Part shown: positions 8,088 to 47,255 of the stretch, piece by piece
Position numbering within the stretch: position 1 is the first letter of the stretch
Layout of the letters: each line of letters opens with the position of its first letter
NCBI GenBank assembly: GCA_964016885.1
Contig: OZ024741.1
Coordinates: 376,402,001-376,466,000, forward strand
Direction of reading: 5' to 3'
DNA from: Eledone cirrhosa
Lineage: Eukaryota
DNA: 64,000 nt
Notes under the pieces: generated by a model
Database searches by the model: none
The model's input: the letters and a program-made list of their open reading frames with translations, nothing else
Told to the model about the DNA's origin: nothing
Program-made: the position numbers and the translations under genes

Positions 8088-8155
8088 TAATTGTTTCTAC
8101 TTTTGGCACAAGGCCAGAAATTACCCAGTACATTACTGGTACGTTATTTTATCGA
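8088..8155 (-). mobile_element. SINE family 1, 3' fragment
   Basis: Reverse complement matches the 3' end of 8238-8430. Confidence 0.75.
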
Positions 8156-8237
8156 TATGTTCACATATCACATATAAATGTCTATTCAATCAAGGCGAAT
8201 GCAATATCACTACATCATTATTATTCTTTCCATATCT

Positions 8238-8430
8238 CCCATAGGGCAGTGGATTGGCAGTATCGGTAGAGGGTCGGACGCCATGCTTTGCAGCATAGAG
8301 TTACGGTCCTTTATGATCTGAGTTCAAATCCTGCCGAGGTTAACTTTGCCTTTCATCCTTACGGGGTCGATAAAATAAAGTACCAGTTATGTACTGGGTA
8401 ATTGCTGGCCTTGTGCCAAAAGTAGAAACA
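8238..8430 (+). mobile_element. tRNA-derived SINE family 1, full length, 18-bp TSD
   Basis: A box TGGCAGTATCGG, B box GAGTTCAAATCC, central GCCTTTCATCCTTACGGGGTCGATAAAATAAAGTACCAG. TSD ATTATTCTTTCCATATCT at 8220-8237 and 8431-8448. Confidence 0.92.
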
Positions 8431-8864
8431 ATTATTCTTTCCATATCTGTCAGAGGAGGAAAACCCAATCCATTGACGTTTTTCAAGTTCTTCCTAACTG
8501 ATGTAAGGAATAGATGATGTTATCTTCAGAATAGAGACCAGCACAGAATTTATGCAACAGAATGGATTATTCTAAATGTCTAAATGTACCAACATTCTAT
8601 GTATTGGTGTTAAATCGGACACGTTCTAACGTGTACCAGCCAAAAACAGAAACTGCTATACCGACGAAATTCCACTCTGTTTCCGCCACCTACATTTCAT
8701 TCATAAGGCATTTGTCAACGTAGGGTATGGTACAAGTATTTTCGCAAGATGCTGCACTATGGGATATTATTCTAATAGATGTAGTGTCAATGTAATCTTC
8801 TTAAACACCAATTTTGAGAGAGAATATATATGTTTATGTGGATATTTTACAACAGCATTATTTT

Positions 8865-8969
8865 AAATCCCGCCGAGGTTAACTTTGCCTTTCATCCTTA
8901 CGGGGTCGATAAAATAAAGTACCAGTAATGTACTGGTGAATTGCTGGCCTTGTGCCTAAAATAGAAACA
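8865..8969 (+). mobile_element. SINE family 1, 5'-truncated, 8-bp TSD
   Basis: Near-identical to the 3' half of 8238-8430. TSD ATTATTTT at 8857-8864 and 8970-8977. Confidence 0.88.
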
Positions 8970-14699: not shown

Positions 14700-15915
14700 T
14701 CAGAAAACATTAATTCCTAAAAACAAAAACAACAGAGTCTGTCAGGCCTATTATCTGATTGATAGTAGCATACATAATCCTTATATCCATACTCTAACAC
14801 AGGCTGGCATATGAACCTTCGATAAACAATATATTAAAGAGAAACAGAAAAGGTGTCGGAAAGGACTGCATGAATGTGAAAGCAATTACTAACAAACTGA
14901 AAGATAATAGAAGAGGACAACAAACATCAACACGGTCTTTATTAACTAATGGATGTTTATTAGGATTCTTCACTCCATGATACTGAAGACACTATATAAA
15001 TAAAGTAACCCTAATACTAATGAATAATATCACCTATATCATATCAACATAGAAAATCACAGATTAGATTTTCACCGTGAACCTATTTGCTATATTTGTC
15101 TTTCTTTTATTCAACGCCTCTATGTATGTTTTTTTTCGATGTACCAAAGTCTTCTTTAAAGAATAGAAGCAATGAACTTTGTATTTAAGGACGAATATTA
15201 AAGTTAATATTCGTTTCTGATTGAGGCACAAGGCCAACAATTTGGGAGGGAGGAGAAATCGATTAAATGGATCTCAGTGCGTTTATGGTGGCTTATTTTA
15301 TCGACCCCGTAAGGATGAAAGGAAATGCTAACCCCGGTGGGATTTGAAATCATAACAGAAAGTGCCGTAACTATATGCATAGAATATAAGAACGATTTAG
15401 ATTATACAAGTCAAAATGCAGCGGAGAAGACACAATATCAGCAAAACAAAACCACTGAAAATGCAAGAATAGAAGTTAAAGACTAAATAAATTCTACAAA
15501 CAGATACGATCAAATGGATACATAACCCTTTCATGGCCAATATCCCTCAAACATGAGAACTGCGATGGATTCAGGTTCAAACAGAAAAACTGATTTTAAT
15601 TGCGCATGAATAAATCCGAGCTACAAAACTAAAGATTATTAAAATATATCGATATGCAATCAGACCTCAAAAAGTAACCTGAAACATAATTTCTTGCAAC
15701 TCAGTTCTTCTTTAACACATGCAAAAACAACTGGTCTATTGGATGTCATGACACTTCGATACGAAATCCGAGAATACATGGCAAGATTTTCGGCATGTGA
15801 CACATGAATGTAAGTGGACACCTCTCCAGATTAATATGTATACGAAACAAAACATCATGAAAAAAGACACTAAAGAACTGACGTATTCTGTGTGGTATTT
15901 CAATCTATTCTGACT
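14700..15915 (+). pseudogene. Ancient R4/Dong-like remnants interrupted by a SINE
   Basis: LIPKN..RPII..EKQKRCRKG at about 14710-14880, and KWIHNPFHGQYP..QTEKLILIAHE at about 15510-15610, compared with KWQEKPLYGKYP..SETEGLIISAQD. Confidence 0.55.
15212..15365 (-). mobile_element. SINE family 1-related, older subfamily
   Basis: Contains ggcacaaggcca and ttattttatcgaccccgtaaggatgaaagg...gatttgaa. Confidence 0.7.
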
Positions 15916-20244: not shown

Positions 20245-20642
20245 AATAACAATAACAATAATAATAATAATAATAATAAATATATATTAAACATACGAAC
20301 ACAAACTCATAGATACTATATCAGTAACCACAACACCACCGCTGCCACCACCCCACCACATCCATCATCGCCGCCACCACTCATTCAATGCTACTGACAC
20401 TATTCCCCTGTTAACTTGAGAGAGAAAAGGGAAGGTGGCGGTAGCACTAGACAAGAGAGAGGCTAGCAAAAGATATAAATAGATTGACTTGGTGACCTTG
20501 CCACGGACAAACGTCTACATCAACAATTATGGGACTGCTGGCTCACCCCTTCCTCACCAAAAATATAAAAAGCCCCGGCACCACCACCGACATAGCCAGC
20601 AGCAATAACAGCCAACTACAACAAAAAGTATATTATATTATT

Positions 20643-20687
20643 GTAATGCACTGGGTGATTGCTGGCCTTGTGCCTGGAGTGGAGACA
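20643..20687 (+). mobile_element. SINE family 1, extreme 5' truncation
   Basis: gtaatgcactgggtgattgctggccttgtgcc...gagaca, flanked by ATTATT at 20637-20642 and 20688-20693. Confidence 0.65.
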
Positions 20688-20780
20688 ATTATTAATAATT
20701 TCATTCTTAAGCCACGCAATGCTCACATTAAGGAACCACTCATGATAATAACAATTTAAAAAAAAACAACAAAAAGAAAA

Positions 20781-23700
20781 CCCCGTGACCAAGAAATACC
20801 GGGATGGCGGCCGGCGGGGAATAGCCATGTCTCTAGGGGAGAACGACCCCTCTAGTCTTGGTTGACACTCGTTCTAGAAGTGGTAACACGAAATGATTAC
20901 CCCTTGGCGGATAAGGATAAAACGCGACAAAATAAAGTAGATGTCTAATGATGAAATCTCATACCGGATCGGCCGACACCCGGGTAAAAAAGGGCCGCGT
21001 CCCTCAGAGAGGAACCAGACTGGGGTCGAAAAATCAGCTAATGGTTCAAACCTTCCCATCACTTCGGAGCTGGAGACCTTCCATAACCGGAATACTCCTA
21101 CTGTTGGCCCTCCATGCTCACCACCAAGAAATCCAAAGAAAAAGAGAGAAAAATGGTCAAGGGAAGATAATAAAGAAGTCCTTGAGGCTTTCTACACTGC
21201 CATGTACTACCCATCAAATACATCGAATACAGAACAAACATATATCAACTGGAAAAAGAAACATCCCGAAAACAGAGGCTATATTGATAGTAACAAACTA
21301 GCCAATATACGAAGAAATATTGTAAGAAAAAAGTTACTAACTGATATAGAAATTGATCAGATCAAGCTAGTAGCACAAAGTCAGCGAAGGGAAAATGAAG
21401 CATGTGTCAGTGAAAACGAGGTAAACTGTAACACTTCGAATCCCAGGGTTGGGGCGGAATCACTGGCAACAGAACAAATTAAAGAAAGGAGCGAAAAAGT
21501 GGAGGGAGTGCATGCTCAGGATGAAACTCCAAATGAAAATAATGAGATCGTAAATGATAAAGAAATGAATGAGAATGAACTTGCCAACTTGAAGGATGAA
21601 ATTATGATCGAATGGATGAAAATGAAAGAATCTGACATGGGGGAACGAGACATCCTCCCTAAGATAACATCAATCGCCAAATAAACCTTCTCCGATCTGA
21701 CATAGAAATGTTAACAAACTATAAAGTAGGTGAACATGTTAAACAAACTAAACTTAGAAAATTGAAAAAAAAGTACAGTATAAGATCAACATGTGACATA
21801 GACATGCTGATAGAAACAATCAAGCAAAAAGTGTCGGCCAAAGCTGCTCGTATAAGGCGCTTTGAAAAACGATCTAGATTCTATACGGACAATAATATGT
21901 TCAAAAACAACCAAAGAAACTTCTACAGAAAAATTGGTAAGTCAACAATAACTGCTAAATCAATACCACCCAAGGAGGAAGTGCAAGAATTCTGGGAAAA
22001 GATCTGGGCCGAAGAAAAAGTTCATAACATACATGCCCCATGGATAGACAGACAAATGAAAGAAACAGCTCACCTTGAAGAACAAACATGGGAAAATATA
22101 ACAGTTGAACAGCTGCGCTTGGCTCTAAGAAAAACCAGCAAATGGAAATCCCCAGGAAAAGACAAAATACAAAACTTTTGGATAAATGCCTTCACAGAGT
22201 CTCATGAGCTGTTAGCCCAACTTTACAATGAAATAGTTAAGGAGCCAGAAAAGATACCATCATGGCTAGTTAACGGCATTACATTCCTGCTACCGAAGAA
22301 TGATGAGACAAACAATCCCAAAAATTACAGACCGATAACTTGCTTGACCACAATGTATAAAATTTTAACATCAGTCCTAACTGAATACACATATGACCAC
22401 CTGATAACAAATGACCTATTTCCCATTGAGCAGAAAGGGTTTAAACGAGGCTCATATGGCTGTAAGGATCAGCTTCTGGTTAGCAAAATGATACTGGAAG
22501 ATTGTCATAATATACACAAAAATCTATCGATTGCTTGGATAGATTATAAAAAAGCATTTGATAGTTTGCCACACAGTTGGATTGAAAAATGTTTAGAGAT
22601 TTTCAAAATATCCCCCGTTGTCAGGAGGTTTTTGTCATTCAGTATGAGGACATGGAAAACGACACTCCTTTTGAATAGTGAAACAAAATCACTGGAAGCT
22701 GGAGAAGTTAACATTAATTGTGGAATTTTTCAGGGTGACTCTTTATCACCGCTTTTATTCTGCATCGCACTTATACCATTAAGTAAAATGCTCAATGAAA
22801 CAAAACATGGATATAGAGTCTATGACAAAACCATTAATCACCTGTTCTACATGGATGACCTGAAACTATTTGCAAAAAATGATGAACAATTGCAAGGGCT
22901 ATTATCCACTGTGAAGCAGTTCAGTGATGACATTAAAATGGAGTTTGGACTGGATAAATGCGCCAAAGCAACGTTCACCAGAGGAAAGCTGCTGAAGAGT
23001 TCAGACATTAATCTTGATCGGGGGAACGTGATAAGAGAGCTTGATCAAGAACAAACTTACAAATATCTAGGTGTTTGTGAAGGAGACGGAATCAAGCACT
23101 CGACAATGAGGGAAAGGATAAGGAAGGAATGTTACCGCAGAGTCAGAGCAATCTTAAGAACGGAATTGAATGCAAGGAATAGGATCGATGCCATAAACAC
23201 GCTTGCCATACCAGTAGTAACCTACAGTTGCAATGTCATCAACTGGTCAAGCACAGAGATCCGTAGGCTCGATACAAAAATTCGAAAATTCTTAACCATG
23301 CACAGAATGCATCACCCTAAGGCAGACATAGATAGAATATATCTCCCTAGGAAAGAAGGAGGACGTGGGTTAATCCAGTTAGACATTGCGTTGAAAACTG
23401 CAACAATTGGATTATCCACATATCTAAGGGAATCACATGATTGGATGATGAAACTCGTTTTGAAACACGAAAGCACCCAAAGATCATATTCCATTACAAA
23501 AGATGCACAAAGATACAGTAATGGACTACAAATTTCAGAAGTCCCATTTACTGCTGAAATGGAAAACACAGAAACAGCAAAGCAGGTAAAAGTAACTGCA
23601 AAGAAAGAACTGCTACAGAAACTGGCTAAGAAATGGCAAGAAAAGCCTCTGTATGGAAAATACCCAGAGCGAGCTAACAATCCTGATGTTGACAAAACTT

Positions 23701-24510
23701 TAACCCATCAGTGGTTGGCATCCTCTGGACTGAAATCGGAGACTGAAGGACTGATTATATCCGCACAAGATCAGTGTCTGCCAACAAAAAATTACCAAGC
23801 CAACATAATAAAAAATGGGTGCAGCCCATTATGCCGTGTATGCAAAAAACAACCAGAGACCATTGACCATATAATTTCAATGTGCAGTCCTATAGCTCCA
23901 ACCGAATACCTAAACAGGCATGACAGAGCTGCACAATACATACATTGGATAATGTGCAAGCATTTTGACCTGCCCCACCTCCCATACTTGAAAAAGATCA
24001 CATCTCAATCTTGTGGAACTTTAGCATCCAAACAGACCGAAAAATAGATGCAAATAGACCTGATATAATATTGAAGGACTTTCAAAGAAGGGTATGCCTG
24101 CTAATTGATATGTCTGTTCCAATAGACAAGAATGTATCTATAAAAACATTTGAAAAATTGAGCAAGTATAAGGACCTGGAGATAGAAATTGGAAAAATGT
24201 GGAAATTGAGAACTAAAACAATACCAGTGGTTGTAGGCGCTCTGGGAATGATACCTAAGGGGTCTAACGACTACTTATCGCAAATCCCAGGAAACCCGCG
24301 TATAGGAGAAATACAAAAGATAGTACTAATGGGAACTGCCCATATACTAAGGAAGATCCTGTCAATATAAGTACATCACAAGTCTAAACACTAAGGATGC
24401 ATGTGTGAATATGTATGTTCTTTCTTGAACATGGCGGACCTTGTTGTCTCTTGAGGTCACTGGTTGTGACTTGGTGATAACTCGTATAAACATAAAGCAA
24501 GATAAATGCA
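20781..24510 (+). mobile_element. R4/Dong-like family A, near-full-length but disabled (RT, CCHC, restriction-like endonuclease)
   Basis: ORFs 20941-21684 (R4-type N-terminus KWSREDNKEVLEAFY), 21708-24047 (NYRPITCL, GIFQGDSLSP, YMDD, CRVC..ETIDHIISMC) and 24011-24370 (NRPDI..LIDMS..EKLSKYKDL). Frame breaks near 21675 and at 23977. (AAT)n tail 24511-24597. The 5' boundary is approximate. Confidence 0.93.
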
Positions 24511-24597
<87 letters not shown>

Positions 24598-24598
<1 letters not shown>

Positions 24599-26213
24599 TG
24601 TTGTTTGTCCTTGCCCTGATGCCCTTGACCATTATGCTGCGAAAAGTGAGAGCAGGATACAAGTTGGGAAGGGGAGAGCTTACCATCAATCACCTCCTCT
24701 TCATGGACGATCTTAAGCTCTTCGGGAAAAGTGAGAAGGAGTTGGATGTGCTTGTTGACACTGTCCGTATTTTCAGCAGTGATATATGTATGCAGTTTGG
24801 TATTGGTAAATGTGGAGTCATTGTGATGAGGAGGGGTAGGTTGAGCAGAAGTAACGGGATCCAGATACCAACAGGTGAGATGATAAAGGAAATTGACTCT
24901 GAGGAAGGATACAAGTATTTGGGCGTTCTGGAGGCTGATGGCATAAAGAACAAAAAAATGAAGGAATTGTTAAGAACTGAATACATTCGGAGAGTAAGGA
25001 GCGTATTGAAGTCACATCTGAACAGCAGAAATGCCATAAGCGCAGTAAATTCCCGAGCTGTGTCTATTATTAGGTACAGTGCGGGAATTCTGAGATGGAA
25101 TGTTGCTGAACAAAAAGAAATGGATAGGAAGACTAGGAAGCTATTGACTATCTACAACATGTTCCACAAGAGGAGTGATGTCGATAGACTCTACCTAAGG
25201 AGATCTGAGGGTGGAAGAGGTCTTATCAGCATAGAGGACTGTGTTCAGATGGAGAAAAACAACCTATACAAATACGTGACCTATAGTAAGGAGCCAATGC
25301 TCAGAGCTGTAGTGAAGGAGGGGACAGTAGGCCAGGGGATACCCAAGGAGGAAATAACATCAAGGAGGAAGAGCAGCCTTAAGGGAAAATCCCTTCATAG
25401 TACCTTCGTTGAGAAAACTGAATTTAGAGATCCACAGACATGGAACTGGTTGAGAAGAGGAGACCTCAAAAAGGCTACAGAAGGAATGCTAATGGCTGCG
25501 CAGGAGCAGGCCCTCAAAACGAAGTGGTTGAAGCACCATATCTACAAGGAGGAGGCTAGCCCACTGTGCAGGATCTGTGGAGAGAGAGAGGAGACTGTGG
25601 CTCACATGGTGTCCGAGTGTAAACACCTAGCCCAGACCCACTATAAGGGCTGGAGACACGATGTGATGGGCAGGGTGATCCACTGGCACCTGTGCAAAGT
25701 AAACAATCTACCACATTCTGAGAAATGGTATGAGCATAGGCCAGAGGCGGTGATGGAGAACAGTCAGGTGAAGGTGCTGTGGGATTTTAGGATACAGACG
25801 GACAAAAAACTGGAACACAATAGACCTGACCTGGTGGTTGTGGACAAAGAAAAAAGATCGTGCCTGATTGTGGATGTGGCCTGCCCGTTCGACACGAGAG
25901 TGCAAGAGAAGGAGAGGGAGAAAATTAACCGATACCAGGACCTAAAGTGGGAGGTGAAAAGGATTTGGAACTGCCATGAAGTCAAAGTGATCCCGATTGT
26001 CATAGGCGCACTGGGGACTATCTCCAAAGGTTTCCAGGGATGGTTAAAGAAAATCGGCCCCTTCACGCTTTTTGGAACGCTTCAAAGGGCATGCTTGCTT
26101 GGAACGGCAAGAACCCTCCGATACGTCCTGAATATCTGAGGCTGCAGGTAGTGGCTTGATATTCAATCCAACGGACTTTCCAGTTAACCAACATCAATGA
26201 CTGAGATTCAAGG
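24598..26213 (+). mobile_element. R4/Dong-like family B, copy B2 (5'-truncated inside RT)
   Basis: Open 513-codon frame 24598-26139 with FMDD, YKYLG, CRIC..ETVAHMVSEC, RHD and PD..D..K. (AAT)n on both sides. Confidence 0.95.
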
Positions 26214-26237
26214 AATAATAATAATAATAATAATAAT

Positions 26238-27322
26238 AAGACTAGGAAGCTATTGACTATCTACAACATGTTCCACAAGAGGAGTGATGTCGATAGACTC
26301 TACCTAAGGAGATCTGAGGGTGGAAGAGGTCTTATCAGCATAAAGGACTGTGTTCAGATGGAGAAAAACAACCTATACAAATACGTGACCTATAGTAAGG
26401 AGACAATGCTCAGAGCTGTACTGAAGGAGGGGACAGTAGGCCAGGGGATATCCAAGGAGGAAATAACATCAAGGAGGAAGAGCAGCCTTAAGGGAAAATC
26501 CCTTCATAGTACCTTATTTGAGAAAACTGAATTTAGAGATCCACAGACATGGAACTGGTTGAGAAGAGGAGACCTCAAAAAGGCTACAGAAGGAATGCTA
26601 ATGGCTGCGCAGGAGCAGGCCCTCAAAACGAAGTGGTTGAAGCACCATATCTACAAGGAGGAGGCTAGCCCACTGTGCAGGATCTGTGGAGAGAGAGAGG
26701 AGACTGTGGCTCACATTGTGTCCGAGTGTAAATACCTAGCCCAGACCCACTATAAGGGCTGGAGACACGATGTGATGGGCAGGGTGATCCACTGGCACCT
26801 GTGCAAAGTAAACAATCTACCACATTCTGAGAAATGGTATGAGCATAGGCCAGAGGCGGCGATGGAGAACAGTCAGGTGAAGGTGCTGTGGGATTTTAGG
26901 ATACAGACGGACAAAAAACTGGAACACAATAGACCTGACCTGGTGGTTGTGGACAAAGAAAAAAGATCGTGCCTGATTGTGGATGTGGCCTGCCCGTTCG
27001 ACACGAGAGTGCAAGAGAAGGAGAGGGAGAAAATTAACCGATACCAGGACCTAAAGTGGGAGGTGAAAAGGATTTGGAACTGCCATGAAGTCAAAGTGAT
27101 CCCGATTGTCATAGGCGCACTGGGGACTATCTCCAAAGGTTTCCAGGGATGGTTAAAGAAAATCGGCCCCTTCACGCTTTTTGGAACGCTTCAAAAGGCA
27201 TGCTTGCTTGGAACAGCAAGAACCCTCCGATACGTCCTGAATATCTGAGGCTGCAGGTAGTGGCTTGATATTCAATCCAACGGACTTTCCAGTTAACCAG
27301 CATCAATGACTGAGATTCAAGG
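26238..27322 (+). mobile_element. R4/Dong-like family B, copy B3 (5'-truncated)
   Basis: ORF 26253-27248 is near-identical to B2. (AAT)n upstream at 26214-26237; the tail runs AATAAC AATAAC (AAT)n then (AAG)n. Confidence 0.95.
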
Positions 27323-28569
27323 AATAACAATAACAATAATAATAATAATAATAATAATAATAAGAAGAAGAAGAAGAAGAAGAATGTGAGGCGGAGAAGA
27401 AGGTAAATCGTTAGGCAACAAAACGACTAGTCATGATCTGTAATGCTTTAAATAAATTCGAAAGCATATTGTTTGCGATATTAGTCGTTAAACAGCGGAG
27501 ACGTAGAAATCTATTAGTATATGAGCCAGAAGAGTGTTTTGGACCCCATGAAGAGTTTTGATGTTAAACGGAAAGAGTCAATGGTCCCTGTTCTCCCAAA
27601 GTTTCTTGGTGTATTGGTAAAATGTGTAGAAGGATAAGGCAAAACATGAAATGAGATAACTATCATTATGAAACAAGACAAATATTCAATTCTTTTAAGC
27701 GTTGAAGTCTTGCATAACTCAATTTGAATGTTTTCCTTATCATATTCTATTTCTCTTTTGATATTGTAAAATATTTACATTGCTTACTTATTTCTCAATG
27801 ATTTATACAGTATGAATTATCTGAAAGATGATTAACGTGTATTGTCGAGTTGATAAGATACTGGAAAGGCTGAATGTAGACAGATGCCTACAGCTAATAA
27901 ACAACCTTAGATGTAATCTAGTAGAGATACTGTATTTACAATTCCTTATTTGTAGCAGCAACCTACTGAGTGCGTTTATGTCCATGGGCTGTTATCCTGT
28001 TGGCATAAGGATCATTTTCCCGAGGAGGAAGGGAAGGAAGATATGCAAGTAATATGTAGCGTTAGTCTTGTAGGGAATCGTTGAAAAACACAAGGCATCG
28101 TAAAGTATTCAATATATGCCAGGCTGCGTGTAAAGTGCTTGAAGGTGTTTCCTAGATGAAAGAAGAACACTCTAACGATGATGATATTAAGAGTAATAAC
28201 ATGAGGTGATAACCAAATTTTAAATCAATTCGTACAACGAAGACAATAGCCAAAGGCCTGGAATATGTCATCACGTAGACATTATTCACACAAACGGGAA
28301 ATATATGCTTCCGGGCTAAAAATATTTGTGAATAAAAACATAAAATAACATCTCGGAATTTGTCGAAGTATACGTTCAATTAAGAAATTTCTGAATATAT
28401 TTAATTCTATATATCTACATGATTGATTACCTATTCAGTGTATAATCTGTGACAAAATATTTGGCAATTATTTAAGGCAATAGAAATAGTTACAATGCAA
28501 TAAGTGCTAAATAGTAAGGAATAAATATTTCAAATATTCAGATCAAACATAATACTATTTGGTATTGGT

Positions 28570-29973: not shown

Positions 29974-32900
29974 CTGATCTGTTCGGACGTCCTTTTTGCT
30001 CGCTCCCAGTAAATCGCTTTATTTGCCAGTTAAAATTATTTGTTGTTAAATATTTCTTGTTGTGTAAGGGATATAAGCCCTTAAAATTTTCCCTTTGAAA
30101 GGGAAAGTGTAATATTTGGGCCAATTGGCCAAAATATTTGAACATTTTACTTTTAGAAATTATTTGAAAAAAAGAAACATTGCTGAGCCACGCCCCCCAG
30201 CAATATGTCCGCTGTCGTGTGACAACGGCGTAAAAGTGGAGAGAAGGGTTAGGGAAATTCATACAACAGACACCACCACAAACATCGTGAACAAAGACAA
30301 CAACACTGAGAACACTAATTTTTTTTAAATTACCACATCAATTACAACAATAACAGCGTCAACCGAAATACAAACAACAGAAAAAATGACAACAAATGCA
30401 TCAACGATATTAACACCACTAACAAGAAAATAAACAACGACAACACCAACAGCAACAATACAAATTGCACCGAAAACAACAACAACGGTGGCACAAATAC
30501 ACAACCAACTACAACAGTGATAACACCAACAACGCTAACGCCAATAAGACCGTTGTAGCAGTAGCAACAGCAACAGCACCAACAAGACCAGTAGCAGCAG
30601 CAATAATGGTGCCGCTGAAAAAGGCGTCACTTCTTTCGCAGATGTGCCCCGAAATATAGAGACACTGTTAGTCACGGAGGAGGAATGGCAGTCGCAAGAG
30701 CCCATGGTGTCGAGAAACGAAAGTTCCCTTGAAACCTCCACCCGATTTCTTCAAAGACCAGCAGCTGCGCACGGTGACTTACCGCACCGTAAGCAAAATG
30801 TCACATCGGGGGTGGAGAGTTCCACGGAGGCTCAAATCCAAAAGGCCTTGGGGTGCGTCTGGGCACACAAAACCCACATCACCCGAAGCAAAATGTACGC
30901 CACAGTAGACGTACCCCCCCCCAGAGGCTAAGTCTCACTCTTTGGAAACCCTAAAGAGTGAGGAGATAGTCTTGGTGCCCTCCTACTGCGGCAGAATATT
31001 GTGAGGGTCAAAGTCACCCACGTGTCTATACCTTGGCTGTCCGCGTCTGTACTGGTTGGAATCGAGGAGAAGACCGCCATACTGCAAATACAGAGAATGG
31101 GAAGAGAGAACTGGTCAGGAATAGACATACAGATGCTAATACAGACTGACCAGGAGTGCATCGAGGCCATCCCAGACATCATAGACCTCGAAAAAAGGCT
31201 CCAACTCCCTATAAGCGTGGAAGAAAGGCGCCCAAAGCGCTATCTCTGTGGGCAGAAGGGTGCAGAAGTGTCACCTCAGGGCCTTCTGCCCGCAGAAGAC
31301 AGCCAAGAAGAGTGCCCCCCTCCTTCCGACGCCTGATCCGCTACTACCAAGAGCAGGACAGGCAACAGAGGCAGAAGACCCTTCAATGGTGAGTAAGAGG
31401 ACAACCTTCGTGGCACCCATACCAAGGCGACGGACAACTAATTCAGCGGCAGCAATGGCGGCAACACCAATTGTCACAGTAGCTATATCGGCGGCAAAAT
31501 CGCCGGAGAGGGCTCCACTACCACCACCAACAGCATTGGAGCTCATACCCCTCCCCGACGCCACGAAATCTGACATGGAGTATGAGGCAGGAGGGAAGTG
31601 GCAAACGGTCTGTCACAAAAAAAACAAAAGAGAAAAAAACCCTTAGCTTCACCCTCCAAAAGTGAAGACAAACAAAGAGGGGTAAGGCTGCAAGGAGACA
31701 TGCAGCAACATCACCACCATCACCATCACCACTACAAGCATCACCATCAACAACAACCACACCACCACCAGCATCACCAAAAACACCAACATCTTAAACA
31801 CGACAAAACAAACACACCAAACAGCAACAACAAGAAAACAGCAACAAAATCACCCCAAAAGGTACACAGCCATAAACATGACAAATAAAGAACTCATACA
31901 ATATATAAAGCAGCACACAGACATCACAGAAAAAACTACTACACCCCACCAAGAACTCTCTCGACAAACACAAGCATCATTGATATCAAAATAGAACAGT
32001 ACAAACTTTTAAAACAAAAATTCGCCAGCGCAGTTGGAGATTTGAGAGGGTCGGTTACCAAGAGCATATACACTGATATCCTCATGGAAACACCCATGAC
32101 CAGCCAAAGGAACGGTTCTACTGCCCCTTCACCACACGATCAAGGTAAGCGATCCTTTCTCACTTGTCCCGTTTCTCATCCAACATGGACGTACTTAGAA
32201 TAGGCAGTATAAATGTACGTGGGCTGGGGTCATCAGGTCACCAAACATAGATGTGGTGGCCATCAGCGAGATAAGAGTCTCCGAAGTACGAGCCTTCGCA
32301 CCGATCTTCGGCGGCTACGATGCATACGGACCATCTACCTGGACCCAGAAGGTAAGTGGGTGGTGCTGGACGTGACCGGCAGCGAAGGCATTGCTTTCAG
32401 GCTAGTAGCCGTCTACGCCCCATTAGGGGCAGGACGGCCAGATTTCTTCAGACGTCTAGAGACCTTTCTTGGAACGTCCCGCGCTTTAGTGTTAGTGGGC
32501 GACTGGAACGGTAGCTTAGATGTACGCTGGGATTATGTGGAGCTAGTAGACAGGGCAGGAGGGTGTAAAAGCCTCAACAACCTGCTCAGACATTTTGAAC
32601 TGTCTGACTGGATTATCCGAATGTGCCAATGTGGACATGGGCAAACCGCATAGGGTCATCGAGATCGTATGTAGATAGGGTATTCTGTAGGGAAACAGAT
32701 AAGGCTGTTCTAGGTTGTCCACAATTTAAAGTAGTCGACTACACGGAACACAATTTGTGATCTGTGAAGTTGACTTAGATAGATTCCATAGGCAAGGGCC
32801 CGGCTACTGGAAGCTGAACGCGTCGTTCCCGGCGCGCAAAGCTTACAGAGACCGGATTAGCAAATTAGTTAAGATTGCGTTGACGGGTGCGATCGTCAAC

Positions 32901-33069
32901 AACAGGTGGTGGTTTACCGCGAAAAGGGCTATTAGAGTAGATTAGATTAAATATTTCTATCATGTTATAATCTATTTACACGGCCAAAACTCATTTTGTA
33001 TCGTCCTGTACGGTTCTGTGCCGTCTGTAATGTTTTATTCATGTTAGCCTTTGTGGCCAATAAAGAAAC

Positions 33070-33070
<1 letters not shown>
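29974..33070 (+). mobile_element. Older Tx1-like LINE: decayed ORF1, APE portion of ORF2, RT deleted, 3' end retained
   Basis: Homologous to 33356-36280 (EAQIQKALGCVWAHKTHI, VKVTHV, FRLVAVYAP, LVGDWNG, GPGYWKLNAS). Jumps at about 32945 to the 3' UTR. Short (ATT)n upstream at 29949-29973, and (ATT)n tail 33071-33148. Confidence 0.88.
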
Positions 33071-33133
<63 letters not shown>

Positions 33134-33355
33134 ATTATTATTATTATTGGCGACCTACGTAGTAAATCGTATCATCGTGAGCTCCGCAAAGGTTTGTTAT
33201 TTCCGTTTGTTAAAAATTGCCATTTATGGAAAATTTTATTGTTAACTGTTTATGCACACATACATTGTTTTCCGAAAAGGACACCCAAAAAGATTGCGGC
33301 CTTGTGCCCAAAATTTTAACTTTTATTATTATCAAAAAATTTCTTTGAAAAAAAA

Positions 33356-35368
33356 ATGGCTAATTCACCTCTGCAACAAGCAGCTGAAAGCCTTCCTCAC
33401 AAATTAACACCTCACACCGACACCACCATTGTAAATGTTACTACATTTGCCAACACAAAAAAAAATATAAGCAGTAGCAATATTTTAAATTTGTCTCAGG
33501 CAGACATTCATTTCCCGCCATTACCAATGACTGCAGGTGTTAAAGCCTCCACCACCACCACCACCGCGACAACCACCACCCCCACCACCACCGCGACAAC
33601 CACCACCCCCACCACCACCGCGACAACAGAAACAAAAGAAGAAAAAAATAAATTAACTCGTGATGTCGAAATGAAATCAAGCAAAATGGACTCTTCCGCA
33701 CCAAAGACGACTGACGTCACCACAACCACAACTGAAACTAAAATTAATATTAACACAAATAACGATAGCAACAACAACAACAATGACATTATAAAAACCC
33801 CCCTCAGTTTCGCCAGAGTAGCAAAACAATTCGAAGCATTCACGGTAACTCGGGAAGATTTAGAAAATGCCAAACAAATGGTAAAGAAAGATGGGTACAG
33901 GGTCACCCCCCCTAATAAAATGGAGCATCGGCGCCTATGCACCGTGTCGTATAGAACAATAAATGTAAAATCGCGCCGAGTGGAACGGGCATCCGAGTCC
34001 CAAATCCAAAAAGCTTTGGGACATGTGTGGGCAAGAAAAACCCACATCAGACGTGGGCAAAAGTATGGAACCGTGGATGTGTTCTTTGAAACACCAGAGG
34101 AGGCTAGAGAACACTCCATGGCCCCATTAAAAAGTGACGACTTCACATTCGTCCCAAGCTATTGTGGCCAGAGACTCGTAAAGATCAGGGTGACCCACGT
34201 TCCACCGGCCATCGAAATTCCCTGGCTAATAGCGGCTGTCCTCGCCGGCATTGAAGCCAACACGAAAATAATAGCAATAGCAAAAGAAAAGCAGGAAAAC
34301 TGCTCCGGATCTGGGATGGAGCTCCTGATCCAAGCGGATCAAAAAAGCATTGAGGAGATCCCAGAGGTAATAGACCTCACTGACGGCAGCCACCTCACGG
34401 TAATTGTCGAGGGCAGAAGACCTAGGTGTGTCGTTTGTGGTGAAGGAACCCACCTAAGGGCTTTCTGCCCTCAGGCTAAAAGGTTGAGGCCACCTCTCCT
34501 ACCCGCCCCAGTGACACAACCATCAACACCACCAGTAGCAGAGATGGCAGCAACAACTGTAGCAGCAACAACAGAAGCAACTATAACAGCAACAACCCCA
34601 GCAACAGTAGCAAAACCAACACCACTACCACCACCAGCAAAACCAACACCACCACCACCCAACGCTTCAGAACTAGCACCAGCGCCTACACCATCCACCA
34701 CACCACAACCAAAACTAACGGCTGTGGAGGATTTTCCACTCCCCGGCCTATCACAACTGGAGACAGATTGTGACGACGAGGAGTGGGAAACGATATCCGG
34801 AAAAAAAAAAGAAACCAAAAAAGAAAAAAATTCTCTTCCTTCCCCCTCCAAAAACAAAATACAGAGGGAAACAAATAAACTAAGAAACAAAAAAGTTAGG
34901 ACAGATATGCCACCATCCACACCAGCATCACCAACCCCATCAACCCAAACACCAACACCATCACCATCATTAACTCCAACACCACCATCACCTACACCAC
35001 AAAAGTCACCAAAATGCGAAACAGAAACAAACCCACAACAAACGCAAACAAAACAAAACAACCAAAACGATACACACTACACAGCATTAAATTTGAACAA
35101 CAAGCAATTATTACACTACATCCAACACAACACCAGCATCACAGAAAAAGACTACACAACAACCCCAAAATTCACACCACCTCCACACATACAAATCACT
35201 CGCATCACACAGAAAACGTACATGACACTAAAACAAAAATTCCCCAAAGACATCGGAGACTTCCGACAAGCACTCTCCAGGAGGATTTATAAGGACATCC
35301 TTCCTGAGGAGGCCACAAGCAGTGAAAAGGATGGAAAAGCCGTCCTTCCCCTACGAGAAGTAAGGTAA
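33356..35368 (+). CDS. Tx1-like ORF1 protein (670 aa), gag-like with CCHC knuckle and Thr/Pro-rich regions
   Basis: Open frame; CVVCGEGTHLRAFC fits CX2CX4HX4C; 27-bp TTTATTTTP repeats near 33550-33630. Confidence 0.88.
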   Translation: MANSPLQQAAESLPHKLTPHTDTTIVNVTTFANTKKNISSSNILNLSQADIHFPPLPMTAGVKASTTTTTATTTTPTTTATTTTPTTTATTETKEEKNKLTRDVEMKSSKMDSSAPKTTDVTTTTTETKININTNNDSNNNNNDIIKTPLSFARVAKQFEAFTVTREDLENAKQMVKKDGYRVTPPNKMEHRRLCTVSYRTINVKSRRVERASESQIQKALGHVWARKTHIRRGQKYGTVDVFFETPEEAREHSMAPLKSDDFTFVPSYCGQRLVKIRVTHVPPAIEIPWLIAAVLAGIEANTKIIAIAKEKQENCSGSGMELLIQADQKSIEEIPEVIDLTDGSHLTVIVEGRRPRCVVCGEGTHLRAFCPQAKRLRPPLLPAPVTQPSTPPVAEMAATTVAATTEATITATTPATVAKPTPLPPPAKPTPPPPNASELAPAPTPSTTPQPKLTAVEDFPLPGLSQLETDCDDEEWETISGKKKETKKEKNSLPSPSKNKIQRETNKLRNKKVRTDMPPSTPASPTPSTQTPTPSPSLTPTPPSPTPQKSPKCETETNPQQTQTKQNNQNDTHYTALNLNNKQLLHYIQHNTSITEKDYTTTPKFTPPPHIQITRITQKTYMTLKQKFPKDIGDFRQALSRRIYKDILPEEATSSEKDGKAVLPLREVR

Positions 35369-35402
35369 GTGGTCTTTCCCATCTTTTCCACTCCTTTTCA
35401 AC

Positions 35403-38400
35403 ATGACCTCACTCAGAATAGGCAGCATAAATGCGCGTGGATTGGGGTCGTCATGGAAGCAGGGCCACCTGCTCAACGACCTCAGGTCACTAAACATAGA
35501 TGTAGTGGCCATCAGCGAGACCAGAATCTCCGAAGCACAGGCTTTTGCACCGATCTTCGGCGGCTACGATGTGTACGCATCTCCCAGCCGTCCGGGATCG
35601 GGGGGAGGAGTTGCTGTGCTTTTTCGGAGAGGTTTGGATCTTGCCATACGGGCCATCTTCCTGGACCCAGAAGGTAAGTTGGTGGTGCTGGACGTGACCA
35701 GCGGAGACGGGCAAGCTTTCAGGTTAGTGGCCGTCTATGCCCCGACAGGAGCAGGGCGGCCTGATCTCTTCCGGCGTCTGGAGACCTTTCTTGGAACGTC
35801 CCGATCTTTAGTGTTAGTGGGCGACTGGAACGGGATCTTAGATGCACGCTGGGATTGTGTGGGATTAGTGGATAGGGAAGGAGGGTGCAAGAGTCTCACC
35901 AACCTGCTCAGACGTTTTGAACTGTCTGACAGGTACCGAATGGATTTCCCGAATGTACCAATGTGGACTTGGACAAATCGCATAGGGTCATCCAGATCAT
36001 ATCTAGATAGAGTATTTTGTAGGGAAATAGATAGGTCTAGCATAGGCTGTCCACAATTCAAGATAGTCAGCTACACGGACCACAAATTCGTGATCTGTGT
36101 GCTTGACTTAGATAGGCTTCATAGACGAGGACCCGGCTACTGGAAGTTAAATGCGTCCTTACCAGCGCGCAAGGCCTACAGAGACCGGATTAGCGAACTA
36201 GTTAAGCGGGCGTTGACGGGGGCCATCGTCAACAACAAGTGGTGGTTTGCTCTGAAAAGAGCAATTAGAATAGAGTCCATTAGGTTTAGTAAGACTTTAG
36301 CAATAGAGAAAAATAGAGCAGAGGGAGAATTAGTTAGAAAATTAGATGAGGCGCTTAGCAAAGGCATCGCGACCGACGTACTTGCGGCGAAATTGGCCCT
36401 TGACCAATTCTTCAATGCAAAGCACGAAGGCTGCGTTGTCAGAGCTAGGGTGCGTGCTCTCAGACACGAGGGGACGAAAGCCGTTCAATGGGCCCGAGTG
36501 GCGGAGGCGCGTCGTGGCAACAAAGCCACGATCCGGTCTTTGGTGGACCACGACGGGCGCATGCTACTCGATCCCGGGCAAATGTGTGAAGCTTTTCAGC
36601 GACACTTCGCTCAACTGTTCGGGGGCAGTGGCGGGCCGGATCGAGGGATGGACTTTAGTGTCTACCTCGACGGACTGCCGCGGCTTTCGGCCACTGAGGC
36701 GGAGTGTTGCGAAAAGCCGATAACAACCGCTGAAGTACGGGATGCAATGACTAGTTGCACAAGGGGTAAATCGCCTGGTTTGGATGGTCTGCCCTATGAA
36801 CTTTACGTACAAATGCCAAACTTGTTCGGAGGCCTCTTGGCGGACGTCTACTGCAACTGGCAACAGAACGGGAGAATTCCCAGCTCTGTGAGCCGAGGAG
36901 CGGTGGCGCTGCTGAGAAAGGATCCGAACAAGGGGGATAACATAGATAATTTTAGGCCCATAACTCTGCTAAACACAGAGTTCAAGATTTTGGCCAAGGT
37001 GCTAGCAAAGAGGTTGGCGTTTGTCGTTGATGGTCTGGTGGGAGAGGCACAGACATGCGCCATTCCCGACAGATCCATCCACGACAACCTCCACCTCATG
37101 CGATACATCGTAGAGAGGGTAGCTAGGAAACCTGGCACGGGTGGGTCTTTGATCAATTTAGATCAGTCGAAAGCCTTCGATAGGGTCGACCATCGTTACC
37201 TAACGGCAGTCCTGAGGGCGGCTGGCTTTGGGCCCGTCTTCAGAGGCTGGATCGCTGCCATGCATAGCGACATCTGCTCTGTAGTGAGAGTGAACGGTCA
37301 CCTTTCGGAACCGTTCAACATCATGCGCTCGGTCCGCCAAGGATGTCCCCTCTCGTCCCTATTGTACGTATTGACTCTCGAGCCATTACTGCACAAACTG
37401 GAGACGATGAGGGGGGTCCCGCGCGAACTAGGATGCGGAAGATCCGTGTCAGCATATGCCGACGATGTCACCGTAGTGGTGTCGAACGCCAAACACATCG
37501 AGGCGATCGGCACTACACTAAGAGAATACGAAGCGGTGACAGGAGCAATGGTCAACCAGGAAAAGTCAGTGGGCCTGCAGCTCGGCACCTGGAGAGGCAG
37601 GTCCATGCCGTCCAACAGCGTCGTCGGGCGCTGGACGGACGGACCGGTTAAATTGCTAGGGGTCTGGTTCGGTCCAGACCTCCAGACGGACAAAAACTGG
37701 GACGAGGTGACGAGCAGGGTGGCTTCTCTCACCCAGAAATGGGCCGAGAGGAAGCTATCCCTGAAAGGTCGAGCGGAGGTGGCGAATGCGTACATCGCAT
37801 CCGTCATATACTACCGCCTGACCGTCGTACTTTGTCCTAAGCCCCGCCTGACTGCGCTGGAGCGTTTGCTCTTTCGCTTCTTGTGGAAGGGACGCGCTCC
37901 GATGGTCAGGCGGTCCATCTGCTGTCAACACCCGCTACGTGGAGGGCTGGGCATGCCGTGGATGATGATGCGCAGACACGCGCTCAGGCTACGACATCTC
38001 CACCTCTTCCTCGACGGTGATCAGGTGTGGTCGCCGTTTGCAAGACACGTTTTTCCCCAGCTCGTCTCCTTGACGGAGCTGCAGTCCTGGGTCAAGCGAA
38101 GACCGAGAGGGAGCGCTTGGAGACTGAAATGTCTTCAGGCGCTCACAGCCGTCGACCAATCGGGCAATGTGATCGGTGGAAACTCCACCTTGGCGTTCTA
38201 TAGGGGATTAGTGGAGGGGAAGAGCGACGACGTACTTGGAGAAACTCTAGGCGTCGACGAAAATCAACTAGCCTGTCTCTTCGGAAGGACTTTCGGGCCG
38301 GGGCCTATGGACAACTTTCAGAAATCCCTAGCCTGGCAGTTCTACCGGGGAGCTTTGCTAGTTCGGGATAAACTCTACAGGCATGGAGGTGCCGTCAGCC

Positions 38401-38822
38401 GGGCATGTCCAAGATGCGCACAGGGTGACGAAAACATCCTGCACCCACTCGTCCAGTGTCCGAGCATTGCTGACTTGTGGGTTTATGTCGAACACCTGCT
38501 GTCACGTGTAGGACGGATCCAGCTATCAGCTGAGTCCATCGTGAGGATTGCCCCGCCCTCTTCCTTTAGCCGGGAAGGGCAGGCAGTTTTTATCTGTCTG
38601 GTGGCCATGGCGAAAGAGATAGTATGGTGGACACGTTTGAAAAGGCTGAAGACGAGCACTTACCTCTTCGGTGATGCCCTGATTAACTTCTTCAAATTTC
38701 ATTTGAAAAGGAAAATCAGGGTAGAGAGGGAAGTGCTCTCTTCCCAGCATTTTGTTGAAAGATGGGTGAGAGAAGCAAGTATGGCCCGAATGAATGGGCC
38801 TTCTCTGAGTATGTGTCTGTAA
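35403..38822 (+). CDS. Tx1-like ORF2 protein (1139 aa): AP endonuclease, reverse transcriptase, C-terminal Cys/His motif
   Basis: SINARGL, ISET, VYAP, GDWN, YLDR, TDH, GPGYWKLN, KSPGLDG, NFRPITLLN, DQSKAFD, VRQGCPLS, YADD, CPRC..ENILHPLVQC. Confidence 0.96.
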   Translation: MTSLRIGSINARGLGSSWKQGHLLNDLRSLNIDVVAISETRISEAQAFAPIFGGYDVYASPSRPGSGGGVAVLFRRGLDLAIRAIFLDPEGKLVVLDVTSGDGQAFRLVAVYAPTGAGRPDLFRRLETFLGTSRSLVLVGDWNGILDARWDCVGLVDREGGCKSLTNLLRRFELSDRYRMDFPNVPMWTWTNRIGSSRSYLDRVFCREIDRSSIGCPQFKIVSYTDHKFVICVLDLDRLHRRGPGYWKLNASLPARKAYRDRISELVKRALTGAIVNNKWWFALKRAIRIESIRFSKTLAIEKNRAEGELVRKLDEALSKGIATDVLAAKLALDQFFNAKHEGCVVRARVRALRHEGTKAVQWARVAEARRGNKATIRSLVDHDGRMLLDPGQMCEAFQRHFAQLFGGSGGPDRGMDFSVYLDGLPRLSATEAECCEKPITTAEVRDAMTSCTRGKSPGLDGLPYELYVQMPNLFGGLLADVYCNWQQNGRIPSSVSRGAVALLRKDPNKGDNIDNFRPITLLNTEFKILAKVLAKRLAFVVDGLVGEAQTCAIPDRSIHDNLHLMRYIVERVARKPGTGGSLINLDQSKAFDRVDHRYLTAVLRAAGFGPVFRGWIAAMHSDICSVVRVNGHLSEPFNIMRSVRQGCPLSSLLYVLTLEPLLHKLETMRGVPRELGCGRSVSAYADDVTVVVSNAKHIEAIGTTLREYEAVTGAMVNQEKSVGLQLGTWRGRSMPSNSVVGRWTDGPVKLLGVWFGPDLQTDKNWDEVTSRVASLTQKWAERKLSLKGRAEVANAYIASVIYYRLTVVLCPKPRLTALERLLFRFLWKGRAPMVRRSICCQHPLRGGLGMPWMMMRRHALRLRHLHLFLDGDQVWSPFARHVFPQLVSLTELQSWVKRRPRGSAWRLKCLQALTAVDQSGNVIGGNSTLAFYRGLVEGKSDDVLGETLGVDENQLACLFGRTFGPGPMDNFQKSLAWQFYRGALLVRDKLYRHGGAVSRACPRCAQGDENILHPLVQCPSIADLWVYVEHLLSRVGRIQLSAESIVRIAPPSSFSREGQAVFICLVAMAKEIVWWTRLKRLKTSTYLFGDALINFFKFHLKRKIRVEREVLSSQHFVERWVREASMARMNGPSLSMCL

Positions 38823-39063
38823 ATTAAAGGTGGAAAACTGGGAGAGGGCACTTGCCCTGGTGGTCAGGGCCACTGTGGTCTTTTAATGGGCTTTCTCCAC
38901 AAATGTCCCTTGGAAGTCTCCCCCCTATTGGGGAATTTTTCTTTGTTATTTTATTTCAACCTCTGTTTTTTTACACGCAGAAATGCCCATTTGTACCGTC
39001 CTGTATTGTCCTGTACTGTCCTTAATGTCTACTTTATGTGAACCCTTGTGGTTAATAAAGAAA

Positions 39064-39120
<57 letters not shown>

Positions 39121-39121
<1 letters not shown>

Positions 39122-40607
39122 AGTTGCATTTATCTTGCTTTATGTTCATACGAGTTATCACCAAGTCACAACCAGTGACCTCAAGAGACAACAAGGTCCG
39201 CCATGTTCAAGAAAGAACATACATACTCACACATGCATCTTTAGTGTTTAGATTTGTGATGTACTTATATTGACAGAATCTTCTTTAGTATATGGGCAGT
39301 TCCCATTAGTACTATCTTTTGTATTTCTCCTATACGCGGGTTTCCTGTGATTTGCGATAAGTAATCATTAGACCCCTTAGGTATCATTCCCAGAGCGCCT
39401 ACAACCACTGGTATTGTTTTAGATCTCAATTTCCACATTTTTCCAATTTCTATCTCCAGGTCCTTATACTTGCTCAATTTTTCAAATGTTTTTATAGATA
39501 CATTCTTGTCTATTGGAACAGGCATATCAATTAGCAGGCATACCCTCTTTTTAAAGTCCTTCAATATTATATCAGGTCTATTCGCATCTAATTTTCGGTC
39601 TGTTTGGATGCTAAAGTTCCAAAAGATTGAGATGTGATCTTTTTCAAGTATGGGAGGTGGTTGATGCTCCCACCAATTCTTTTGATGGGGCAGGTCAAAA
39701 TGCTTACACATTATCCAATGTATGTATTGTGCAGCTCTGTCATGCCTGTTTAGGTATTCGGTTGGAGCTATAGGACTGCGCATTGAAATTATATGGTCAA
39801 TGATCTCTGGTTGTTTTTTGCATACACGGCATAATGGGCTGCATCCATTTTTTATTATGTTGGCTTGGTAATTTTTTGTTGGCAGACACTGATCTTGTGC
39901 TGATATAATCAGTCCTTCAGTCTCCAATTTCAGTCCAGAGGATGCCAACCACTGATGGGTTAAAGTTTTGTCAACATCAGGATTGTTAGCTCGCTCTGGG
40001 TATTTTCCATACAGAGGCTTTTTCTTCCCATTTCTTAGCCAGTTTCTGTAGCAGCTCTTTATTTGCAGTTACTTTTACCTGCTTTGCTTTTTCTGTGTTT
40101 TCCATTTCAGCAGTAAATGGGACTTCTGAAATTTGTAGTCCATTACTGTATCTTTGTGCATCTTTTGTAATGGAATATGATCGTTTGATGCTTTCGTGTT
40201 TCAAAACGAGTTTCATCATCCAATCATGTGATTCCCTTAGATATGTAGATAATCCAATTGTTGCAGTTTTCAACGCAATGTCTAACTGGATTAACCCACG
40301 TCCTCCTTCTTTCCTAGGGAGATATATTATATCTATATCTGCCTTAGGGTGATGCATTCTGTGAATGGTTAAGAATTTTCGAATTTTTGTATTGAGCCTA
40401 CGGATCTCTGTGCTTGACCAGTTGATGACATTGTTACTGTAGGTTACAACTTATATGGCAAGCGTGTTTATGGCACCGATCCTATTCCCTGCATTCAATT
40501 CCGTTCTTAAGATTGCTCTTACTCTGCGGTAACATTCCTTCCTTATCCTTTCCCTCATTGTCGAGTGCTTGATTCCGTCTCCTTCACAAACACCTAGATA
40601 TTTGTAA
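39121..40607 (-). mobile_element. R4/Dong-like family A, 5'-truncated copy, tail-to-tail with the Tx1
   Basis: Reverse complement closely matches about 23056-24510. ORFs 39986-40357 and 39265-39948. (ATT)n on both sides at 39066-39120 and 40607-40708. Confidence 0.95.
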
Positions 40608-46303: not shown

Positions 46304-46450
46304 ATTGTTTCTACTTTTGGCACAAGGCCAGCAATTATCCCAGTACATTACTGGTACTTTATTTTATCGACCCCGTAAGGATGAAAGGCAAAGTAAACCT
46401 CGGCGGGAATTGAACTCAGATCGTAAAGGGACGTAACTATGCTGGAAAGC
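46304..46450 (-). mobile_element. SINE family 1 (5'-truncated), nested in an older same-orientation SINE, 12-bp TSD
   Basis: TSD CCGAGACAAATA at 46292-46303 and 46451-46462. The older copy spans about 46150-46510. Confidence 0.87.
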
Positions 46451-47075
46451 CCGAGACAAATAGTGCTAAGTTATTTTCCGACACTGTAACGACTTTGGAA
46501 GTTCTCCGCCCTTGCATGTTCATAATAATGCTGTGTGTTGTCGAGTTCTTTTTTAATTCTCAGATTTCTAGATGTTAGAATTTTTTGAGTAGTAAGTTCA
46601 AAGTAAAATAGCCGAAATCTGCATTACTAATAATTTAATCCAATTTACGATGGCGAAGTTTGTACACAAATTATCCTACATTAACATAAATGAAATAAAG
46701 TTTATGCGTGAAATAGTTAATTGGGAACTAAATTTAAGTGTGTAACCAATTAGGGCATCACATCTTTCACAATTTAATTCACATATTTGAAATATGTGGA
46801 ACCATATTATCTTCATGAACAATCCTATTATCACATTAGACTAAAAGGTTACGACGAAAATAAAGGCATTGTATTCAATGAATAAGTTAAATATGATACT
46901 AAATTTCAGATGTCGAGCTATGGAGTGAAGTTAATTAGAAATAACTTACAGGTTAATTAATATGCATAAAACGATGTTTATGAAGCCGATTTAACAACAG
47001 ACGTCCATCTGATTAGAAGGGAGATTATTTAAAATGCCATTGCTAGTCGTACTATGAATATGATGTCATTATAAG

Positions 47076-47255
47076 TGAATTGGCAGTATCGGTAGAGGGT
47101 CAGGCGCCATGCTTTGCAGCACAGTTACGTCCCTTTACGGAATGAGTTCAAATCCCGCCGAGGTTAATTTTGCCTTTCATCCTTACGGGGTCGATAACAT
47201 AAAGTACCAGTAATACACTGCTATAATTGCTGGCCTTGTGCCAAAAGTAGAAACA
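47076..47255 (+). mobile_element. SINE family 1, 8-bp TSD
   Basis: A and B boxes present. TSD ATTATAAG at 47068-47075 and 47256-47263. Confidence 0.9.

Follow-up and report, generated by a model that had tools for sequence, protein, structure and literature searches.

The question raised by this locus is which LINE supplies the copying enzyme for the dominant SINE of Eledone cirrhosa. The window (the whole stretch of 64,000 nt analysed here) contains elements of both kinds, and a sequence-only reading of it had proposed that a shared 3' hairpin with compensatory stems links the SINE to a Tx1 LINE as its likely mobiliser.

The young LINE of the window and its surroundings

The window contains a young, full-length L1-group (Tx1-like) LINE of family A (33149..39065, + strand), inserted in (ATT)n and recognised from a 5' end shared by 13 of 20 fetched relatives and from its close similarity to 29 genomic relatives (98% identity over the last 767 nt) in the 3.0-Gb genome. 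It encodes ORF1 (33320..35368, +; stop-to-stop frame of 682 aa), in which a CCHC knuckle can be read and for which no Pfam match was found, and ORF2 (35364..38822, +; frame of 1152 aa), to which Pfam assigns an APE endonuclease, a reverse transcriptase and a zf-RVT domain. The best PDB match of ORF2 is the human L1 ORF2p (E 3.5e-51, residues 17-868), with R2 at 1e-20, and the best named protein relative is from Argonauta hians (72%). This architecture, ORF1 plus an ORF2 with APE, RT and a C-terminal zinc domain, is that of the L1 group. Target-specific insertion, which is a trait of many Tx1 families, was also found, family A being flanked by (ATT)n 5' and 3' and families D/E by ATCT-type sequence. 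From architecture and target specificity, the label Tx1 is likely correct for the clade, the tree described below having unnamed outgroups only. The 3' signal of the young LINE (39041..39065, +) comprises the stem, a CTTGT loop, AATAAA, GAAA and two further bases, and the hairpin is part of its minimum-energy fold.

On the 5' side of the young LINE there is (ATT)5 (33134..33148, +), preceded by C, which is the 5' copy of the duplicated target, and on the 3' side there is (ATT)18 (39066..39119, +). The latter array doubles as the (TAA)n end of a 5'-truncated, antisense Dong/R4-like LINE (39120..40607, − strand; inverted match to 23057-24573), which hosts the young LINE and in which RT and PD-(D/E)xK-like motifs can be read; the name Dong is used in line with PMC3812793. 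ATT runs were found directly 3' of 30 of 30 young LINEs, and (ATT)n was also present 5' in all 10 full-length copies printed with their 5' flank.

Tandem Dong/R4-like elements of two families, with (TAA)n ends, are present in the window at 19810-27400 (+) and 39120-40607 (−), and Tx1-like LINEs often lie antisense inside the (TAA)n ends of such elements. Four young LINE copies (L122, L128, L130, L132) all start at position 2172 of the window copy, three of them being printed with one common unrelated 5' sequence upstream; the four probably represent a subfamily that acquired another 5' end by recombination. Window positions 1-2300 have a LINE fragment with an RT match, which is presumably RTE-like, judging from its motifs.

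The LINE clade and its targets

An older LINE of the same clade (about 29974..33070, +; start placed by eye) is, over 638 nt, 82% identical to the young one. It is internally deleted, retaining only residues 13-314 of ORF2, with the 5' quarter of this frame fused straight to the 3' UTR. Its 3' signal (33047..33070, +), read in the sequence, has a GCC/GGC stem and a TTTGT loop.

Genome-wide, the two forms of the LINE-type end motif had 10,791 and 3,619 matches, and ORF2 sequence was present upstream in 26 of 30 loci sampled from the former. The LINE families with a hairpin end are A, B and C, which are flanked by ATT, and D/E, which are flanked by ATCT. Flanks of (ATCT)n instead of (ATT)n were observed in 14 of 30 hairpin-end LINE loci (including L033, L035, L039, L044, L046, L056 and L059), and in one further locus (L276) the hairpin-end LINE is followed by (CAT)n. 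The occurrence of (ATT)n, (ATCT)n and (CAT)n flanks is target switching inside one LINE clade. In a tree of 32 rows, which used only copies with at least 200 aligned residues and unnamed outgroups, all the tested hairpin-ending LINE copies and the Argonauta protein formed one clade (100/100); the row L036, labelled A, corresponds to the upstream family-C copy. One copy (L364) combines a C-type spacer with a B-like ORF2. The LINE spacer contains AATAAA, a form that was found in four SINEs only. No RNA entries with the LINE end were found among the matches listed, and no relatives of the LINE were found in the metagenome scan.

The SINE and its relatives

The SINE is short (about 190 nt), non-coding, dispersed and TSD-flanked, and its end motif had 251,289 exact matches in the genome, compared to 0 for a control motif. 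The copy at 8244..8430 (+) consists of a head, in which a B-box-like GTTCAAATCC was recognised by eye, a conserved core and the 3' signal (8407-8430); ARAGORN gave 0 tRNA and Rfam 0 matches for the head. The window also has a near full-length copy with an 8-bp repeat beginning with ATTAT (47074..47255, +), another copy at 46306..46450 (−), a 5'-truncated copy with the same end (8862..8969, +), a longer-body variant with the same hairpin (15213..15378, −) and two short SINE ends (8092..8155, −; 20643..20687, +). In other loci (L167, L168, L179, L189, L334), the inserted SINE is ultra-short (about 30 nt) and extends barely beyond the 3' signal, each insertion having its own TSD from ATTAT or nearby.

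The core of the SINE may be Nin/Deu-like. A 24-nt core of the SINE is also present in SINE-like repeats from other animals, where the tails are unrelated; the SINE tail was seen by eye in none of 113 distinct core-bearing loci from these animals (0/113). The tail is therefore regarded as a swapped module. Metagenome contigs (L380-L500) have host-derived repeats of other animals in which the 24-nt core is combined with several differing heads and tails; no SINE core was found in viral contigs. Both the SINE core with its tail and the LINE end are present in contigs of relatives, with no stem variant among the matches listed, in contigs that drop rare variants.

Similarity of the 3' ends

The strings described in the sequence-only reading could all be located: AACC (39041-44), CTTGT (39045-49) and GGTT (39050-53) in the young LINE, which ends at 39065; GCC-TTTGT-GGC (33047-57) in the old LINE, which ends at 33070; and TGGC-CTTGT-GCCA (8406-18) in the SINE, which ends at 8430. 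The constant distance to ATT was confirmed as well, having 13 nt between the 3-bp stem and ATTAT in all three ends. SINE and LINE ends are in the same register, with no gaps, over the stem, the loop, a spacer of 7 nt, GAAA and two further bases, after which ATTAT follows. The spacer is 7 nt long in 211 of 218 SINE ends, with variable letters. YTTGT hairpins with AGAAA behind them were found nine times when the window was scanned, eight of these matches being SINE or LINE ends.

When anchored at the junction, the majority ends of B and D/E are identical to that of the SINE at 16 of 24 positions (binomial ~4e-5) and that of young family A at 14 of 24 (binomial 1e-3), both probabilities being post hoc and indicative only; family C, which has one extra base, is identical at 12 of 24. 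The same anchored comparison with one SINE end gave 3/24 for CR1 and 6 and 7/24 for two Dong-like ends (8-9 at best with sliding). The homology of SINE and LINE covers about 24 nt only, compared to a shared stretch of 50-100 nt in published SINE/LINE pairs, according to parts of two papers (PMC3747384, PMC3472496).

The SINE's own GGC/GCC stem was not encountered in any LINE family: the search for the SINE stem together with AATAAA gave four matches, all of them SINE bodies, and no other LINE carrying the SINE stem was present in the 49 ends examined of 948 SINE-type ends with atypical upstream sequence. These 49 (30 + 19) were deleted or ultra-short SINEs, along with one join of a LINE body and a SINE tail.

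Hairpin and covariation

In 13 hand-picked rows, pair 1 of the stem is invariant, pair 2 is C-G in the nine LINE rows and G-C in the four SINE rows, pair 3 is G-C in 11 rows, replaced by A-U in family A and disrupted in one row, and pair 4 is unpaired in eight. These include two independent double changes in the 3-bp core, and the observed covariation was reached in 0 of 500 shuffles, for rows that are related and hand-picked. The earlier claim that the stems differ but pair is thus weaker than it was worded, with two compensatory changes in the 3-bp core and pair 4 unpaired in 8 of the 13 rows. A-T/T-A at pair 2 (658 matches) was considered as additional covariation and rejected: a SINE body was present in 27 of the 30 matches inspected, and most were double transitions, which were not counted because neutral decay predicts them.

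For LINE families A, B, D and E, the hairpin has a predicted probability of 0.74-0.90 (median 0.88-0.90 in family A), and for family C one of 0.23 (n=3). For full-length SINE copies it is 0.01-0.05 (median 0.04-0.05), and for the last 30 nt alone it is 0.99. Forcing the hairpin in the full-length SINE gives a fold that is a median of 1.8 kcal/mol above the best one, with 42 of 98 copies within 1 kcal/mol, and in the window copy it costs 0.1 kcal/mol. No SINE end folded better than its shuffles (z +0.24 to -1.09). A 3-bp stem would need protein binding for stability, and its recognition is plausible.

The low hairpin probability in full-length SINE RNA, together with the small number of independent double changes (only two) and the avoidance of ATCT sites by SINEs despite the hairpin in ATCT-type LINEs, would fit recognition by primary sequence (CTTGTG and GAAA) plus AUUAU target pairing, the same clade mobilising the SINE and the hairpin being incidental in the latter. 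However, the differences between SINE and LINE in the 11-nt core are exactly both partners of pair 2 (C-G to G-C), family A alters both partners of pair 3 (G-C to A-U), and the hairpin is predicted with high probability in LINE families A, B, D and E, which makes recognition by primary sequence unlikely. That a hairpin is what the enzyme reads is slightly more probable than not.

Insertion site and target-site duplications

The ATT that follows both kinds of element, which had been described as a tail, has to be reinterpreted. In the SINE it is the start of the 3' copy (8431..8448, +) of an 18-bp TSD, whose 5' copy (8220..8237, +) begins with ATTATT and is preceded by T; in the LINE, (ATT)n flanks the element on both sides and is target. 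TSDs of at least 10 bp were found in 90 of 177 headed SINEs, with a median of 14 (mismatched-flank control: mean 11.9, maximum 21), and in 58 of these 90 the TSD starts exactly 2 nt past GAAA. The base preceding the TSD is C in 32 cases, T in 24 and A in 1, that is, a pyrimidine, which gives the cut site Y/ATTAT. In evenly spaced genome samples, 34 of 43 SINE ends are followed by ATTAT, against a background of 0.003 per position. SINE ends before (ATT)4 number 19,500 (about 8%), most SINE insertions lying outside long arrays, whereas 5/7 ends of family A, 4/9 of B and 13/30 of C precede at least four ATT units.

At 63 loci, a LINE end lies at most 70 nt behind the SINE core; 40 of these were fetched and 37 re-read, 32 having a SINE end. 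The nested LINE end has a 10-23 bp TSD from the SINE's own ATTAT in 11 of the 32, six of them in clearly non-repetitive sequence. Therefore, the LINE machinery cuts the site of the SINE, in the same orientation and also outside long arrays. The reverse nesting is also present, with SINEs directly behind LINE ends. Family C contributes 22 of the 37 short LINE ends behind SINEs, a hint that this family uses SINE-type sites readily. SINE ends before ATCT repeats number 73, about 64 of which still begin with ATTAT (by eye); the ATCT-type families D/E match the SINE end equally well, yet do not seem to carry the SINE to ATCT sites.

Joined elements were also observed. In L234:3805-7700, a place also covered by L188, a LINE whose 5' end looks intact and whose ORF2 reaches residue 553 is fused to the last 25 nt of a SINE; the joint has no ATTAT and is followed by (ATT)n and a Dong-like end, and may correspond to a template switch or a deletion. 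In L304, L310, L311 and L312, a SINE body is fused to a family-C LINE end with no ATTAT duplication between them. The chimeras L188/L234, L304 and L310-L312 were rejected as proof of template switching because insertion at the shared site plus target deletion looks alike.

Other LINEs are found at ATT repeats. A LINE ending in (ATT)n, assigned to the CR1 clade from its protein motifs, is abundant (9,850 end matches), ends in C-ATTATT and has an age similar to that of the SINE (nearest-neighbour divergence 5.6%), properties that would suit a mobiliser of the SINE. However, its hairpin is different, its anchored identity is the 3/24 given above, an ATTAT-led TSD of at least 10 bp was found in 0 of 30 copies and its 5' flanks are not ATT (5' ends being crude and six reaching the locus edge), and its ATT is an intrinsic tail, used by SINEs as a target. 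The CR1-type candidate is thus already largely refuted and very improbable. In loci L237-L266 and L203, the CR1-type LINE has the (ATT)n tail and its own 4-bp hairpin, and SINEs and Tx1-like LINEs insert into the tail. The Dong/R4-like elements are located in the same arrays and could be considered for that reason; however, their (TAA/AAT)n end is on the opposite strand, the SINE orientation relative to ATT is opposite to theirs, and their ends have 6-7 of 24 letters in common with the SINE end, making them the least probable source of all.

Ages of the families and the possibility of another partner

The nearest-neighbour divergence of the last 110 nt, with 6-39 copies kept per group, is 1.8-2.0% for families A, B and C (1.8% for A), 4.1% for D/E and 4.5-5.5% for the SINE; the best matches of family A differ by 0.45% on average. 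The age ranges of SINE and LINE overlap, and most SINE copies look older than A, B and C, in samples that are small.

This older appearance of the SINE copies, as well as the lack of an extant family with the GGC/GCC stem, would be expected if the true partner were an unsampled or extinct LINE outside the clade, having the SINE's stem, with the likeness to the Tx1-like ends being old or convergent; a rare LINE could also escape a search in which 49 of the 948 atypical ends were examined, along with 1.7 Mb of DNA that was mostly targeted. That search, including the inspected upstream clusters of the 1.7 Mb, found no LINE family matching the SINE tail better; a better match over a longer stretch in another LINE family was the outcome named beforehand as counting against the pairing. 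Furthermore, the Tx1-like ends use the exact site of the SINE, only the SINE, this clade and CR1 end at ATTAT with unrelated downstream flanks (1.7 Mb; 25 largest of 40 clusters), and there are young copies of the SINE, with 15 of 88 short ones lying within 2% of the majority. A partner from outside the clade is accordingly considered improbable.

Proposed mobilisation of the SINE

The SINE likely uses the copying enzyme of the LINE because both have the same 24-letter end pattern and the exact ATTAT cut site. The likeness of SINE and LINE is real and beyond chance, and a true partnership at the level of the clade is the most likely explanation. As in stringent pairs, a shared 3' terminal sequence (14-16/24, short) and the same insertion signature were observed. 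It is proposed that the dominant SINE is likely copied by the ORF2 protein of the ATT-targeting Tx1-like clade, which is predicted to recognise the shared 3' end (probability of about 0.8); for the part that names the ATT-targeting LINE clade as the mobiliser, the case is strong. The earlier statement that this Tx1 lineage drives the SINE is upheld for the clade, by cut site, orientation, TSD type, reciprocal nesting and the finding of no better LINE, and does not extend to the young subfamily of the window, which is not singled out (14/24 vs 16/24 for B and D/E) and looks younger than most SINE copies. Over time, the SINE was likely driven by the clade of ATT-type families (A, B, C or an ancestor of these) and not specifically by that subfamily.

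In the proposed mechanism, Pol III would transcribe the SINE from its internal boxes and read through the ATTAT of the SINE's own TSD, and the resulting RNA would end with the hairpin, the spacer, GAAA, CA and AUUAU. The ORF2p of an ATT-type family would bind GAAA and the short hairpin, which lies 13 nt before the junction, and the LINE endonuclease would nick the bottom strand at Y/ATTAT. The freed 3' end of the target could then pair with AUUAU of the RNA and prime reverse transcription, and a second nick about 14 nt downstream would produce the TSD. The AATAAA in the LINE spacer would be a likely Pol II poly(A) signal, presumably lost in the SINE with the spacer length kept. A need for RNA-target pairing would explain why the ATCT-type sisters do not take the SINE to their sites, as well as the stacking of SINE and LINE head to tail.

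A more specific proposal, for which the chances are a little under even, is that an animal Tx1-clade LINE is stringent, the signal it reads being GAAA together with an 11-nt hairpin at a constant distance of 13 nt from where priming occurs, and that a SINE of a quarter-million copies mimics this signal with a swapped base pair, the SINE TSD supplying AUUAU and hence the ATT-type families, not the ATCT-type, being followed.

Relation to known SINE/LINE pairs

A SINE has likewise been assigned to Tx1-clade LINEs in crocodilians, where, in the part of the study dealing with SINEU and Tx1-Mar, the assignment is based on target preference and overlapping age (Kojima 2015, PMC4494074). SINEU is described there as having snRNA heads, poly(A) tails and a Mariner target, with no LINE having the same 3' end, whereas the SINE described here lacks poly(A), targets ATTAT and has its 3' signal in common with the LINE. 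Comparable as well are ZmSINE2/3 with LINE1-1_ZM and SINEX-3_CR with L1-1_CR, in which an L1-clade 3' hairpin common to LINE and SINE has compensatory stems and a conserved loop and flank (Ohshima 2012, PMC3472496; PMC3747384); those pairs, however, come from plants and algae and share about 50-80 nt, and the sections that present them describe no microsatellite targeting. Parts of the same two papers count only three SINEs with an L1-type shared hairpin among 58 pairs, and L1-group LINEs are named as the exception to SINE tail-sharing, with three SINEs vs more than 800 LINE families, in the corresponding portion of PMC3747384.

In UnaL2/UnaSINE1 and ZfL2-1/-2, an ORF2p recognises a 3' stem-loop near a short repeat end, as reported in part of PMC4176376. 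These belong to the L2 clade and were established there by experiment, whereas the pair proposed here belongs to the L1 group, and its repeat is the duplicated target. Insertion of an APE-type LINE into a microsatellite in one orientation is similarly reported for Kibi in (TC)n, Koshi in (TTC)n and crocodilian Tx1 in (TTCC)n/(TTTC)n, in the relevant parts of PMC4494074 and PMC3812793; the (ATT)n target found here and the (ATCT)n of its sisters are not among the targets listed in those parts, nor is a partner SINE. Octopus genomes are described in parts of PMC8967140 and PMC13282606 as SINE-rich (tRNA-Deu/tRNA-CORE) and as having active L1-Tx1, Dong-R4, CR1 and RTE families; the same parts give family counts, with L1-Tx1 and tRNA SINEs reported without pairing. 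Named octopus SINEs are OR1, OR2 and OK, candidates for identity with the SINE described here. No animal Tx1/SINE pair with a shared tail was found in the freely accessible papers searched.

A Tx1-like clade whose hairpin is conserved, whose targets are of two types and which has a SINE as passenger makes the persistence of stringent recognition in the animal L1 group directly testable. If true, no stringent signal in the L1 group would be smaller than the one proposed, its recognition would work as a natural two-key system combining structure with target pairing, and it would be known which engine drives the dominant repeat in an octopod genome.
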